DNA of 64,000 bases from an uncultured Porticoccus sp. Lineage in GTDB: Bacteria > Pseudomonadota > Gammaproteobacteria > Pseudomonadales > Porticoccaceae. Location: positions 6,354 to 70,353 of the forward strand of contig CAXBDQ010000012.1 of the NCBI GenBank assembly GCA_963974675.1, read 5' to 3'. The notes below the pieces were generated by a model. It searched no databases, was not told the origin of the DNA, and worked only from the letters and a program-made list of their open reading frames with translations. The translations under genes and the position numbers were made by a program. Positions 56,775-62,790 of the stretch are shown here, piece by piece (the first letter of the stretch is position 1; each line of letters starts with the position of its first letter).

Positions 56775-56994
56775 GTAAATGCATAAGCCTGCTAAGTAAC
56801 AACTTCACACAGAACATAATACCCCTCTCTTTTGGCAAAATAAGAATCAGACTCCATTACTTCAATCTTTCGTCACGACGGCTCACTTACTAAATAATTA
56901 GACAGCGCTTACATGCAAAACTGGCCTTCTCCCCCTTGCTTTCTCCTCCCTACTTACCCATCATTGCCCGTTTGCTTTTGGAAAAATTCTCTCC

Positions 56995-59880
56995 ATGGAA
57001 AACATCTCGATTCGCGGTGCAAGAACCCATAATTTGAAGTCGGTAGACCTTGATCTGCCCCGTGATAAGCTCATTGTAGTGACAGGTTTATCAGGATCGG
57101 GGAAATCATCGCTGGCCTTCGACACCCTCTATGCCGAGGGGCAACGCCGCTATGTCGAATCGCTCTCAGCCTATGCCCGTCAGTTCCTTTCTATGATGGA
57201 AAAACCGGATGTAGATCATATTGAGGGGCTGTCTCCCGCCATTTCCATTGAGCAAAAATCTACCTCCCACAACCCACGGTCTACGGTGGGAACCATTACT
57301 GAAATTCACGATTACCTGCGCCTTTTATATGCACGTGTTGGTGAACCTCGCTGCCCTGATCACAACGAACCCTTAAAGGCACAAACCATTAGTCAAATGG
57401 TCGACCAAGTATTGGCGTTACCCGAAGACTCTAAGTTGATGCTGCTGGCACCTGTAATACGGGGTAGAAAAGGTGAACATGCCCATATTTTTCAAAGCCT
57501 TCGGGCACAGGGGTTTATCCGGGTCCGAGTTGATGGCTTGGTGGTGGATCTTGATGATGTACCTGAACTGGAAAAGAACAAAAAACACAATATTGAAGTG
57601 GTGGTCGACCGCTTTAAGGTGAAACCCGACTTACAACTTAGGCTATCCGAATCCTTTGAAGCGACTCTGAATCTTTCCGAAGGACTCGCCATTGTGACAA
57701 GTATGGATGGCTCGCCAATTCATTCTTCATTTACTACAGCATCAGCTATTACCGCATGTGACTCATCAACAAACAACAGCACATCAGAAATGCTGTTCTC
57801 TGCTCGATTTGCCTGCCCGGTATGTAACTACAGTATTGATGAACTTGAGCCCAGGATGTTCTCTTTTAACAATCCCGCAGGAGCCTGCCCCGGTTGCGAT
57901 GGCTTGGGCGTTAAGCAATTTTTTGATATTGACAGAGTCGTTCAATATCCGGAGTGCTCCATTTCTGAAGGTGCTATTCGCAGCTGGGATAGAAAAAATC
58001 TTTTTTACTTCAATATGTTGACGTCTATAGCAGACCATTATGGGTTTAATATTGACCACCCCTTTCAAGACTTAGCCCCGCAACACCAGCAAGTGGTTCT
58101 ATTTGGCAGCGGCCAAGAGGTGATTGATTTTAATTATGTGAATGACAAAGGCACCGTGTTCAAACGCTCCCATCAATTTGAGGGGATTGTACCCAACATG
58201 GAGCGACGCTTCCGCGAGACTGAATCTCAAGGTGTACGAGAAGATCTCACTAAATACATGAATACCCAGCACTGCCCGGAATGCGGTGGTGCCCGATTGA
58301 GAAAATCCGCACGGCATGTGTTTATTGATGAAAAACCCCTACCCGAAGTGGGTAATATTCCCGTGGGAGAACTGGCGGACTACTACGAAAACCTTCATTT
58401 AGATGGAAGTAGAGGAGAAATTGCCGAAAAAGTCCTTAAGGAAATCCGAGACCGACTTCGCTTCTTGGTGGATGTCGGCCTTAACTACCTCAATCTAAAC
58501 CGCAGTGCCGACACCCTCTCCGGTGGTGAAGCGCAGCGTATTCGTCTGGCCAGTCAGATTGGTGCTGGACTTGTGGGGGTTATGTACATACTCGATGAAC
58601 CTTCAATTGGACTGCATCAGCGAGATAATGCACGGCTATTGGCCACCCTCACCCGCCTAAGAGATCTTGGTAATACGGTGATTGTGGTTGAGCATGATGA
58701 AGACGCCATTCGCGAAGCAGATTACATTGTCGACATCGGCCCCGGCGCAGGAGTGCATGGAGGGGAAATTATCGCCCAAGGTTCCTATCAGGATATTCTC
58801 AATGAACCACGCTCCCTGACTGGCGATTACCTCTCTGGCCGAAAATCCATTGTTATCCCTAAAAACCGCACCCCAGCCACCAGTAAAAAATTGCTGCTCA
58901 ATGGCGCCAGTGGTAATAATTTACAACAGGTCGATTTAGAACTTTCAGTGGGGTTGCTTACCTGTATTACGGGTGTTTCAGGCTCAGGTAAATCTACCCT
59001 CATCAATGAAACCTTATATCCCATTGCCGCGACAGAATTAAATAAGGCGACAACCCTTAATCCTGCCGCCTATGAATCTATATCTGGCATGGAGCATTTT
59101 GATAAATGCGTGGATATTGATCAGAGTCCTATCGGCCGAACCCCACGCTCTAACCCTGCAACCTATACAGGTATCTTTACCCCCATCCGTGAATTATTTG
59201 CCGGCACACAGGAATCTCGGTCACGCGGTTATAAACCCGGACGCTTCAGTTTTAATGTTAAAGGTGGGCGCTGTGAAGCCTGCCAGGGCGATGGTGTCAC
59301 CAAAGTAGAAATGCACTTCCTACCCGATGTCTATGTGCCCTGTGATGTATGTAAAAGCAAACGCTATAACCGAGAAACTCTGGAGGTTCGTTACAAGGGC
59401 AAAAGCATCCACGAAGTACTGGAATTAACAGTGGAAGATGCTAGAGAATTTTTTGACGCAGTACCCACTATCTCAAGAAAACTACAAACCCTAATGGATG
59501 TGGGTCTCTCTTATATCAAACTGGGGCAAGCAGCCACGACCCTATCTGGAGGCGAAGCCCAAAGGGTTAAACTCTCACGAGAGCTATCTAAACGTGATAC
59601 AGGTAATACTCTTTACATATTGGACGAACCCACCACCGGTTTACACTTTCACGATATTCAACAACTGCTCACCGTGTTACACCACCTGCGTGACCACGGC
59701 AATACCGTTGTCGTCATTGAGCACAACCTGGATGTCATAAAAACTGCTGACTGGATTGTGGACCTGGGCCCGGAAGGAGGCTCCGGGGGCGGAGAAATCA
59801 TTGCCACCGGCACACCAGAGGATGTCGCAAAAATTACCCACTCCCATACTGGGTACTTTTTAAATAAATTGTTGAAATAA
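56995..59880 (+). CDS. uvrA: Excinuclease ABC subunit A
   Basis: [25 protein letters not shown] twice, zinc fingers, GVSGSGKST. Confidence 0.99.
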
Positions 59881-59941
59881 TATATTTAAAAGTCAGCAGT
59901 TAAAGGTATTCGTCTAAAAACTTGATTAAAAACAAGGGCAC

Positions 59942-59977
59942 CTACTCTCTGAATCCTATTTACGAGTCAGAGAGTAG
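59942..59977. repeat. Perfect 11-bp inverted repeat downstream of uvrA
   Basis: ctactctctga-N14-tcagagagtag. Confidence 0.85.
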
Positions 59978-60158
59978 CAATGAAAATATTTTGTTTGGTA
60001 TCACCCCTATCGCAATCACCAACATCTGTATCACATCATTACTAGAAACGATCAAAGAAGAAAAAACTCCGCAGGCTTTCTAATAGAGAGTAGCCGGTCT
60101 TTAATCAACAATCTCAAACACGCTCAACAGACCCACGATTTTTTCAATTAATTCGCTA

Positions 60159-60220
60159 TTGCCATTTTATCAAACACTGTTAATATACTGTACATAAACA
60201 CATACTGTTTAAAAAAACAT
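60159..60220 (+). promoter_or_regulatory. Putative sigma70 promoter overlapped by two tandem LexA-like boxes
   Basis: TTGCCA-N16-TAATAT with TG extension, then TACTGTacataaacACAT (60186) and TACTGTttaaaaaaACAT (60203). Confidence 0.5.
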
Positions 60221-60261
60221 ACAACTGTCACTACATTTAAGAAACAGGCGGGAGAAGAAAC

Positions 60262-60438
60262 ATGTTGAGTACATTGGTATCCAAATTCATTGACATATTG
60301 CGTTCACGTATTCGATTTGCTCGTTATCAACAAACCCTCAACCCCTTTCAACACAACCCACATCCCGTGACACTCGGCCCGGAACAACTCAGCCGATTCT
60401 TTACCTATGTCGCAAACAATGAACGTGTTCGCACCTGA
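60262..60438 (+). CDS. Small hypothetical protein, 58 aa (below the ORF-track cutoff)
   Basis: RBS gggaga 6 nt upstream; MLSTLVSKFIDILRSRIRFARYQQTLNPFQHNPHPVTLGPEQLSRFFTYVANNERVRT. Confidence 0.55.
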   Translation: MLSTLVSKFIDILRSRIRFARYQQTLNPFQHNPHPVTLGPEQLSRFFTYVANNERVRT

Positions 60439-60547
60439 GTTAAAGTTGAGTCAGCTTATACTTCTAACTGTCACCAACCACGCAAAAAGCCTAACCACAA
60501 ACCACCTCCTCAGAAAAGTTGGGTGACCTATCCCCTACCCATAGACA

Positions 60548-60615
60548 TTTATCAGGTCTATCTCCAATTGAAACCTTAAGACTTTTATCAGGTCTATCTC
60601 CAACTGAAACCTTAA
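60548..60615 (+). repeat. Intergenic tandem duplication with 36-bp period, 2 copies
   Basis: tttatcaggtctatctccaa(t/c)tgaaaccttaa at 60548 and 60584. Confidence 0.92.
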
Positions 60616-60710: not shown

Positions 60711-61322
60711 ATGAAGTATGTAGTCATTACCCTATTACTGGTTTTATCCGGATGTGCCACTCAACATAATCAACAACAAGCTCCTACAGTAAAAGAAATA
60801 CCAAAAGTACAAGAAGTACAAGAAGTACAAGAAGTACAAGAAGTACAAGAAGTACAAGAAGTACAAAAACAGGTTGTGTTAACCAAGGCAGAAGCACCAC
60901 GAGATGAAAGTGCCAAAAAGCCTCCTCAACCCAAAATTGAGAAGCCTATCGCCAACACGGACAAACCAACACCACCGATAACCTTTGAAAATTTGAAAGG
61001 AAATTACTCCTGTATATTGGAATATGCCTATAAAGTCTCAACAGCATCGTCCGTCAAAACGAATGGAGGGATATTGCGAATGACCATTAATGAGCAGGAC
61101 GCGGTCATTCAAAGCACAGGCGCGGCTGTAACATTAAAACTACATTCAAAGTCGGGACGTGGCATTACTGCCACCAACGACACTACAGTTTTCACATATA
61201 ATCGAAATTCTCATGGTTTCACTCTCGACACAGGTATTGGGCGTTCGGGTTTTAATCTTGCAGGAGGGGGGCATACCGGCAATCAGATGAAGATGTTTGG
61301 ATCATGCTCCAAACAAGGATGA
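60711..61322 (+). CDS. Hypothetical lipoprotein with a repeat-containing linker
   Basis: Lipobox LSGC at residue 15, (VQE)6 and Pro/Lys-rich linker, beta-rich C-terminal domain with two Cys. Confidence 0.8.
   Translation: MKYVVITLLLVLSGCATQHNQQQAPTVKEIPKVQEVQEVQEVQEVQEVQEVQKQVVLTKAEAPRDESAKKPPQPKIEKPIANTDKPTPPITFENLKGNYSCILEYAYKVSTASSVKTNGGILRMTINEQDAVIQSTGAAVTLKLHSKSGRGITATNDTTVFTYNRNSHGFTLDTGIGRSGFNLAGGGHTGNQMKMFGSCSKQG
60805..60867 (+). repeat. In-frame 9-bp VNTR, 7 copies
   Basis: (aagtacaag)6 aagtacaaa. Confidence 0.97.
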
Positions 61323-61563
61323 ATGACTCGGTTACGCAATCGATCTAAAAGTGCCTGGGGTTGTATGCCCCGATACGAATTAATTATGGGATGGAGGGCA
61401 ACCCAGCAGGCTAAAGACTTAATCTAGCCTAAGCCCTCCCCCTCGGCTCTTCAAAGCTGGATACAGTGCGCTGCCTGGCCCATAAAATCTTTCATCTAAA
61501 CGATGTCTGCCCTAACAGGTACTGTTAACATACACATTCGGTGGAAATAATTCATGAAACCAT

Positions 61564-62790
61564 ATGAAACAATATTTAGTTGGTGGCGCTGTACGCGATA
61601 AATTACTCAACTATCCGTTTATAGAGCGGGATTGGGTGGTGGTTGGCGCTACCCCCGAAGAGTTACTAAACCAAGGCTTTCAGCAAGTTGGCAGTGACTT
61701 CCCTGTCTTTCTTCACCCGGAAACCAAAGAAGAATACGCCTTGGCACGAACCGAACGAAAATCTGGTACGGGCTATAAAGGCTTTCAAGTTTTTTCCGAC
61801 ACCAGCGTTACATTGGAAGAGGATTTATCGAGGCGTGACCTCACCATCAATGCCATGGCAGAAGATATTAATGGCCAGATCATAGACCCCTATCACGGTC
61901 AAAAAGATCTCTCAAATAAAATTCTTCGTCATGTTTCCAATGCCTTTGTGGAAGATCCCTTACGTGTTCTCCGCGTGGCACGATTTGCTGCCCGCTACCA
62001 CCATCTGGGATTTACAATTGCCGAGGAAACTCTCGCCCTGATGACTGATATTGTCGCCAGCGGGGAATTACAACACCTCACCGCAGAGCGTGTCTGGGTA
62101 GAAACGGAAAAAGCTCTTTCAGAACGGTCACCCCGCACCTATATAGAAGTTTTACGTCAATGTAATGCTCTCAGCGTGCTATTCCCCGAGATAGACCGCC
62201 TATTTGGCGTCGCTCAGCGCGCCGATTATCATCCCGAAATAGACACCGGTCTTCATGTTTTGATGTCGTTAGATCAAGCGACGGTACTTGACGAAGACAC
62301 GGCTACCCGTTTTGCCGTACTCGTCCATGACTTGGGCAAAGGCACTACCCCAGAAAATATTTTGCCTAAACATAGTGGTCACGAAGAAAGGGGCGTTCAG
62401 TTGGTCAATAATCTCTGTGATCGATTAAAAGCGCCCAATCGTTATCGTGAACTGGCCGTGGCTGTAACGCGTTATCACCTGTTATGTCACAAAGCACCTC
62501 ATCTGAGACCCTCGACCATTCTCAAAGTGCTCAAAGGTATTGGCGCACTGAGACAACCCGAAAAACTGGCACAATTTGTTCGTTGTTGCGAGTCTGATGC
62601 CAAAGGTCGCCTGGGGTTCGAAAATAAGCCTTACGAATCAGGCGCGTGGCTAACAAAAGCTTTTGAAGCCATTCAAACCATCGACAATAAGGAATTTATT
62701 CAGCAGGGTCTCAGCGGTCAACAATTGGGCGAAGCGATCGATAGACGACGCCAACAGCTTATTGCTGAATTGAAAGAGCAACAACATTGA
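61564..62790 (+). CDS. cca: Multifunctional CCA tRNA nucleotidyltransferase
   Basis: YLVGGAVRDKLL, ERDWVVVG, EYALARTERK, RRDLTINAMA, EDPLRVLRVARF, HD domain. Confidence 0.98.
   Translation: MKQYLVGGAVRDKLLNYPFIERDWVVVGATPEELLNQGFQQVGSDFPVFLHPETKEEYALARTERKSGTGYKGFQVFSDTSVTLEEDLSRRDLTINAMAEDINGQIIDPYHGQKDLSNKILRHVSNAFVEDPLRVLRVARFAARYHHLGFTIAEETLALMTDIVASGELQHLTAERVWVETEKALSERSPRTYIEVLRQCNALSVLFPEIDRLFGVAQRADYHPEIDTGLHVLMSLDQATVLDEDTATRFAVLVHDLGKGTTPENILPKHSGHEERGVQLVNNLCDRLKAPNRYRELAVAVTRYHLLCHKAPHLRPSTILKVLKGIGALRQPEKLAQFVRCCESDAKGRLGFENKPYESGAWLTKAFEAIQTIDNKEFIQQGLSGQQLGEAIDRRRQQLIAELKEQQH

Follow-up and report, generated by a model that had tools for sequence, protein, structure and literature searches.

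What is the short open reading frame (ORF) that lies between uvrA and cca in an uncultured Porticoccus sp., and is its expression tied to DNA damage? The stretch of DNA that we analysed (the window, 64,000 nucleotides) had previously been read from its letters only, and the earlier note proposed a candidate DNA-damage module next to uvrA, in which an unannotated gene would encode an SOS-induced small protein with weak, early-inducing operators or would be the target of a different regulator with this motif. The promoter, the two boxes phased by 17 bp, the GGGAG ribosome-binding site and the 58-aa ORF were all located where that note had placed them (Table 1). We compared the locus with its relatives in order to ask whether the ORF is a gene, what controls it and where it comes from.

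Table 1. Coordinates of the small ORF, its control region and its conserved neighbours in the window.
Feature	Position	Strand	Basis or remark
uvrA	56995-59880	+	Conserved upstream neighbour; ends 381 bp upstream of the ATG of the ORF
-35 hexamer TTGCCA	60159-60164	+	Promoter scan; conserved in related loci
Extended -10, TGtTAATAT	60178-60186	+	Promoter scan; TG precedes the hexamer TAATAT (60181-60186)
Box 1, core CTGTACATAAACACAT	60188-60203	+	Pattern TACTGT-N8-ACAT
Box 1 as 20-mer TACTGTACATAAACACATAC	60186-60205	+	Orthologue of the canonical LexA box found in relatives
Box 2, core CTGTTTAAAAAAACAT	60205-60220	+	Pattern TACTGT-N8-ACAT
Box 2 as 20-mer TACTGTTTAAAAAAACATAC	60203-60222	+	17 bp in phase with box 1
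Ribosome-binding site GGGAG	60250-60254	+	Read from the sequence; ATG 7 nt further on
58-aa ORF, TGA stop	60262-60438	+	Orthologues, codon-position variation, dN/dS, IntI similarity
Conserved block RSRIRFARY	60301-60327	+	Matches the IntI1 stretch LRERIRYLHY
Invariant block HPVTLGPEQLSRFFTYVANNE	60361-60423	+	Matches a 21-residue IntI1 segment
cca extended -10 TGTTAACAT	61523-61531	+	Conserved across Porticoccus
cca (tRNA nucleotidyltransferase)	61564-62790	+	Conserved downstream anchor

The 58-aa peptide proved to have homologues. A protein search returned 16 small unnamed proteins, with a Pfam domain in none of them, and a genome scan returned 20 loci, all from Porticoccus/Porticoccaceae (Cellvibrionales), to which later lookups added further lineages. 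Orthologues occupy the matching position between uvrA and cca in more than 20 Porticoccus/Porticoccaceae genomes, within the conserved order uvrA - small ORF - variable stretch - cca - SDR, and the gene is kept on a 1.44-Mb complete genome as well as on a 1.3-Mb chromosome record. Its length ranges from 55 to 73 aa and the position of the stop is intact in all lineages. The peptides share two near-invariant blocks, LRS(R/K)IR..(R/K)Y and HPVTLGPEQLSRFF..(V/I)AN.E, and across the loci the C-terminal block varies at 21 of 21 third codon positions, compared with 6 first and 3 second positions. Nei-Gojobori dN/dS values for close pairs lie between 0.01 and 0.24, with a median of 0.11 over the 21 pairs in which synonymous change is unsaturated. 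Given the orthologues, the fixed synteny, these dN/dS values and the saturated synonymous change in the invariant blocks, the comparison shows that the small ORF is a genuine protein-coding gene under purifying selection. A pseudogene was rejected on dN/dS, and a chance ORF was rejected as well. The gene is "unannotated" only in a restricted sense: gene callers in the JGI/ENA assemblies do call it, but as a hypothetical protein without a Pfam family, and no source among the protein search, Pfam and NCBIfam gives the family a name.

The family is a narrow one, since an HMM search of 1.84 billion representative proteins gave only 7 matches, 6 of them family members of 60-88 aa. The seventh, P0023, is a 2613-aa repeat protein in which 11 separate stretches match profile positions 33-50 (the HPVTLGPEQLSRFF region) at an E-value of 1.4e-4, possibly by chance or through low complexity. 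One locus (L004, JBLHWD010000003.1) is labelled as a Saprospiraceae MAG and has the Porticoccus uvrA-ORF-cca synteny with a uvrA identity of 83%; it is probably a mis-binned contig. We found no literature linking Porticoccus with LexA or integrons.

We then considered the control region. The promoter scan by itself performs at chance level (3 promoters found in the window against 2.9 expected), yet the promoter of the small ORF, with its 16-nt spacer between TTGCCA and TAATAT, recurs in more than 20 related genomes with every position matched. When the promoters of the related loci were aligned on the box they shared a TTG(C/T)(C/T)A -35 followed by TTT, a spacer of 16-17 nt, a TA..AT -10 and ACTGT directly after it. 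The -35 occurs as TTGCCA, TTGTTA, TTGCTA or TTGTCA, then TTT, at a constant distance from the box, and the -10 abuts the box in every orthologue. At 15 loci, representing at least 10 distinct lineages, the element directly after the -10 is a canonical LexA box, TACTGTAT(N6)ACAG, of which TACTGTATAAATATACAG is an example with the full CTGT-N8-ACAG pattern. The canonical box was seen in every lineage outside the window's sub-clade, the most divergent member (L033) among them, and in most of the lineages that carry it the ATG follows 31-32 nt after CTGT. We scored these boxes with an approximate position weight matrix built from E. coli LexA sites, whose training sites score 12.4-24.9 bits. The boxes of the relatives reached 17.5-24.7 bits, within this range or close to its top, and were the only site of at least 13 bits in most of the ~12-kb loci. 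SOS control of the small-ORF family is thus well supported at the level of promoter sequence, because a canonical LexA box stands at the identical promoter position in the relatives.

The operator of the window itself departs from this arrangement. The canonical CTGT-N8-ACAG occurs nowhere in the 64-kb window, and the orthologous box 1 (TACTGTACATAAACACAT) has a T in place of the G of CAG in its right half-site. Box 2 (TACTGTTTAAAAAAACAT) lies 17 bp away, the two 20-mers sharing 3 nt. The pattern TACTGT-N8-ACAT is found three times in the 64-kb window against 0.12 expected, a number reached in 0 of 100 shuffles, and Tandem Repeats Finder independently called a 17-bp period over 60185-60222. 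The third match, at 61520 (61503-61537, TACTGTTAACATACACAT), overlaps the extended -10 of cca, and only the window and L001 have its distal ACAT; we rejected it as a regulator site and regard it as a chance overlap with that conserved promoter element.

ACAT in place of ACAG is shared by the window, L001, L002, L003, L027, L029-L032 and L034. The 20-mer of this sub-clade is otherwise almost unchanged (TACTGTATATAAAYACATAC) in at least six diverged lineages, with diverging flanks, and on this alignment ACAT is to be read as one old, retained G-to-T change. The substitution that the earlier note had seen in both boxes is a clade-wide variant and no sequencing quirk. L002 and L003 retain the short leader, and in the window, L001, L027, L029, L031 and L034 an insert of about 50 nt separates the box from the ribosome-binding site. 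This insert begins with a second unit in 17-bp phase, so that box 2 of the window sits within a lineage-specific 5'UTR extension of ~45-55 nt. The second unit reads CTGT-N8-ACAT in the window and L001, CTGA-N8-ACAT in L027 and L031, and CTGA-N8-ACAG in L029, where a score of about 15-18 bits makes it a credible LexA site; L034 has three phased units. Several lineages with otherwise diverged UTRs show this 17-bp phasing.

On the E. coli matrix box 1 of the window scores 6.2 bits (rank 18 among the sites of the window) and box 2 6.4 bits (rank 16), both lower than any of the training sites. Restoring the G alone raises box 1 to 13.3 bits, which makes it the best site in the window. No lexA gene lies within the 64 kb, and a search for RNA runs that contain the locus found none. 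Because both boxes score below known E. coli LexA sites, SOS control of the window's own copy is uncertain from its sequence; LexA control in this lineage may be weakened, may require two dimers side by side, or may be lost. The description as an SOS-induced small protein accordingly stands for the family, most relatives having the canonical box, and is left in doubt for the window, whose boxes fall below the scores of known sites. Likewise the operators are weak as had been proposed, each of them scoring below known LexA sites, but early induction is only one of the possibilities.

A connection with uvrA did not hold up. Upstream of uvrA no LexA-like box was found in any Porticoccus locus examined, apart from a weak site of the window's lineage at 56888-56907 (TACTAAATAATTAGACAGCG), 108 bp upstream of the uvrA start. 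This site is probably a chance match, since it is confined to the window's own lineage (L021) and is absent from L001 and all other relatives. Co-regulation with uvrA was therefore rejected, and the small ORF does not belong to a LexA-linked module with uvrA. Depending on the locus, the small ORF is preceded by uvrA, by a prkA/yeaH/spoVR operon or by a Wzy gene.

The surroundings of the ORF also hold several lineage-specific features. The spacer between uvrA and the promoter (59881-60158) is 278 bp long in the window's lineage, compared to about 50-100 bp in most relatives. It contains a 17-bp hairpin without a T-run (59942-59977), possibly the uvrA terminator, as well as 12-bp inverted repeats at 59922 and 60097 and a non-conserved 53-aa ORF. 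A metagenome variant (L026) lacks about 106 bp of this spacer. A MITE was considered for it and rejected, since neither the window nor the loci contain a further copy. A 36-bp unit (AGACWTTTATCAGGTCTATCTCCAAYTGAAACCTTA) is tandemly duplicated between the small ORF and a lipoprotein gene (60543-60615). It is present in one copy in L001, L002 and L026 and doubled in metagenome contigs identical to the window; lying upstream of the lipoprotein promoter, it may serve as a regulatory site. The predicted lipoprotein (60711-61322) has a signal peptide ending in ...LSGC, and its gene carries 8.8 copies of a 9-bp repeat (60788-60866) that encodes (EVQ)n. The protein measures 203 aa, and 192 aa in L022 and L023; as the copy number differs between contigs that are otherwise identical, (EVQ)n is a length-variable surface repeat. 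In Tara scaffolds of the same organism uvrA (L022, 6715-9619) and an epimerase gene (L025, 1056-1959) are each called as two pieces, which suggests frameshifts or assembly errors and not biology.

A clue to the origin of the gene came from profile searches. The NCBIfam model NF011946, "integron integrase", was matched by 16 of the 20 members over profile positions 31-74 of 337 (best E-value 0.0015), and among 18,950 NCBIfam models no other recombinase model was matched; Pfam gave nothing significant, with weak Phage_int_SAM_4 matches only. When IntI1 (a query sequence 100% identical to a database cluster) was run against the window by tblastn, the best match fell exactly on the small ORF, covering IntI1 residues 15-74 with an E-value of 6e-4. 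Alignment of the family with 20 IntI sequences by hhalign gave a probability of 95.4%, a P-value of 2e-8 and a score of 54.6 over IntI1 residues 13-74. It pairs LRSRIRFARY with LRERIRYLHY, which we take to be the first helix of the N-terminal domain in the IntI fold, and HPVTLGPEQLSRFFTYVANNER with a 22-residue IntI1 stretch. Column-shuffled controls (n = 200) had a mean score of 12.6 (sd 2.5, maximum 25) and the reversed control scored 12.9; the real score lies about 17 sd above the shuffled controls. Members of 67-73 aa keep the IntI spacing between the two blocks together with traces of the intervening segment, which is deleted in the 58-aa form of the window. The match to the SAM-like (core-binding) N-terminal domain of IntI is partial and consists of two N-terminal segments. 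The C-terminal tyrosine-recombinase domain (R-H-R-Y, with the IntI-specific insertion) is absent from the window and the loci, as judged by tblastn with full-length IntI1. Taken together these profile comparisons indicate that the small peptide is homologous to IntI residues ~13-74, and an integrase origin would explain the presence of a LexA operator at the small ORF.

Neither an intermediate nor a full-length intI was found at the uvrA-cca locus, and no attI or attC remnants were seen at the loci, where attC was looked for in the form of repeated elements. Integron cassettes were considered for the insert between uvrA and the ORF in L015-L017 and rejected, the insert being the prkA/yeaH/spoVR operon. 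In L018 (6190-6249) and L020 an in-frame reading past the stop gives SPSN..ISHAL..LVFYF, which faintly resembles the IntI1 segment SVSTHRQALAALLFFY and may be a fossil of the truncated integrase; AT-rich DNA yields such strings easily.

The peptide is strongly basic and hydrophilic, with a pI of 11.3, a net charge of about +5 and a GRAVY of -0.41. Its longest hydrophobic run is 4 residues and it has no hydrophobic segment. AlphaFold predicts two helices, 2-24 and 40-57, with a pLDDT of 73. An Rfam scan of the whole window found no RNA family, and no antisense RNA partner was detected. We therefore rejected a toxin of the TisB/DinQ type, named in the earlier note as known SOS-induced small proteins, both on hydropathy and on the lack of an antisense RNA family.

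On this evidence from sequence comparison we think it likely that the ORF is what is left of an ancient intI, namely its 5' stub, kept together with the LexA-controlled promoter of that gene. This account is the most economical one, since the promoter architecture of intI and an integrase N-terminus occur together and the rest of the integron is absent. In an ancestor of the Porticoccaceae an integrase would have been truncated behind the position that corresponds to IntI1 residue ~75, where the direction of the change, from integrase to stub, is itself part of our interpretation. The catalytic domain, attI and the cassettes would have been lost, and the stub would have lived on as a gene in its own right, 55-73 codons long, with a fixed place between uvrA and cca and from then on under purifying selection. 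One canonical LexA box abutting the -10 and covering the expected transcription start would be the ancestral and still the usual state, and from this position LexA would block the promoter until, stimulated by RecA, it cleaves itself in response to DNA damage. The window's sub-clade would have acquired ACAT in place of ACAG in the right half-site, and ~50 nt of inserted sequence would have given rise to a second box 17 bp in phase, so that LexA control would be weakened or would need two dimers side by side. The product would be a small, strongly basic protein whose two predicted helices match the two integrase N-terminal segments.

Such a stub protein cannot catalyse recombination. A speculative guess, made with low confidence, is that its two helices serve to bind nucleic acid or another protein (DNA, a recombinase). 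We also put forward, only tentatively, that the IntI stub has been exapted as a genus-wide SOS effector acting on DNA or on a tyrosine recombinase (e.g. Xer) upon DNA damage and kept even in streamlined marine genomes of 1.3-1.4 Mb in which the locus shows no integron any more, the window's lineage then representing operator remodelling in progress, from one canonical box to phased tandem boxes that are half-defective.

Other explanations have to be weighed against this account. The promoter of the window's lineage could have escaped LexA, the ACAT boxes being relics or plain promoter/5'UTR sequence and the gene being constitutive or under a different regulator that recognizes ATACTG repeats; we see this as a real possibility, if not the one that we would expect. 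Neither box attains the score of any known E. coli LexA site, the G-to-T change strikes the CTG/CAG triplet that is generally known as the most critical part of a LexA half-site, and ATACTG occurs three times in the sub-clade, at spacings of 11-12 and 17 bp. Yet the 20-mer TACTGTATATAAAYACATAC has stayed near-constant but for the G-to-T change in at least six diverged lineages with diverging flanks, and the 17-bp phasing is preserved. Moreover the second box of L029 is a good LexA site of 15-18 bits, and weak boxes arranged in tandem do function in colicin operons (PMC2994835). Even with LexA in control of the promoter, the ORF might be a dead fragment or a regulatory leader, with the SOS promoter serving a downstream gene (the lipoprotein gene, cca) or with a peptide that works in cis. 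It is true that no terminator-like site follows the small ORF and that cca starts only about 100-170 bp downstream of it in many relatives, and a cis-acting arrest peptide would be compatible with these data. However, cca has its own conserved extended -10 promoter, and the genes that separate the ORF from cca differ among loci or are encoded on the opposite strand. A dead fragment is also at odds with the strong purifying selection (dN/dS 0.01-0.24 in close pairs, synonymous-saturated invariant blocks) and with a stop position and a length of 55-73 aa that are intact in all lineages, and we consider the whole of this explanation very unlikely.

The integron ancestry may be questioned as well: the similarity to IntI could be a coincidence or reflect a generic helix motif, and the gene could be an independent lineage-specific SOS gene. 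The alignment with IntI1 comprises only ~55 columns at roughly 30% identity, and no integron parts lie nearby. None of the 7 matches of the exhaustive search of 1.84 billion proteins is an integrase, a profile search of PDB sequences with the family gave nothing at E <= 10, and Foldseek found no match to the AlphaFold model. Against coincidence stand the hhalign P-value of 2e-8, with a score about 17 sd above the column-shuffled controls, the collinearity of both blocks, which fall on the proper part of the N-terminus, and the native spacing in the long variants. In addition, the integron integrase model was the only one of its kind among the 18,950 NCBIfam models to be matched, by 16 of 20 members, and a LexA box on the -10 is the very architecture described for intI (PMC3108266). 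On balance we find an origin without integrons improbable, and we retain the reading of the ORF as an intI stub that kept its LexA-controlled promoter.

How does such a stub compare with known systems? It is well known that the capture of genes is tied to stress through integron integrases under LexA control, and Guerin et al. are reported to have described such integrase genes in 2009, namely intI1 and intIA of V. cholerae. Like these genes the small ORF has an E. coli-type LexA box on or beside its -10 and a homologous N-terminal coding sequence. Unlike them it ends at the equivalent of ~75 residues, without a catalytic domain, IntI-specific insertion, attI or cassettes, and it has a fixed place on the chromosome, with housekeeping genes on both sides, and is inherited vertically. 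Dead integrases are usually regarded as decaying pseudogenes that are losing LexA control. In intI promoters LexA boxes overlap the -10, and the ancestral integron has been inferred to be LexA-regulated; inactivation of intI is common (43-46% of the intI homologues assessed) and usually goes with the loss of LexA control (Cambray et al. 2011, PMC3108266). The small ORF resembles these inactivated genes as an integrase gene without recombinase function. In contrast to their decay and loss of LexA control, the stub keeps its LexA box in most lineages and is under strong purifying selection, which points to a new function rather than decay.

What we regard as new is thus a LexA-controlled intI derivative that appears to be domesticated and not decaying, together with a natural case of operator remodelling. 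The pattern across this marine family points to the domestication of a mobile-element fragment into a stress-response protein of the host, and would offer a tractable case of a de novo function arising from a truncated gene. If the peptide does nothing, the finding shrinks to an unusually well-preserved integron fossil. One set of orthologues also displays the remodelling of a LexA operator, through a G-to-T change and a phased second box.

Dual SOS boxes are known at recN. They are also found at lexA, and in colicin operons two overlapping boxes that are individually weak (heterology index 7.5-13) bind two LexA dimers and repress tightly (PMC2994835). The window is like the colicin operons, lexA and recN in that one promoter carries two LexA-type boxes which adjoin or overlap each other, and differs from them in the spacing of 17 bp, in 20-mers that overlap by 3 and in the G of the right CAG that is missing from both boxes. 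The small SOS-induced proteins of E. coli include the membrane toxins TisB and DinQ as well as DinI and SulA. The small ORF would add to this short list an uncharacterised family with no Pfam entry: like TisB, DinQ, DinI and SulA it is a short gene behind a LexA operator, but it has no sequence similarity to any of them, and its ancestry appears to lie in the N-terminus of a recombinase.
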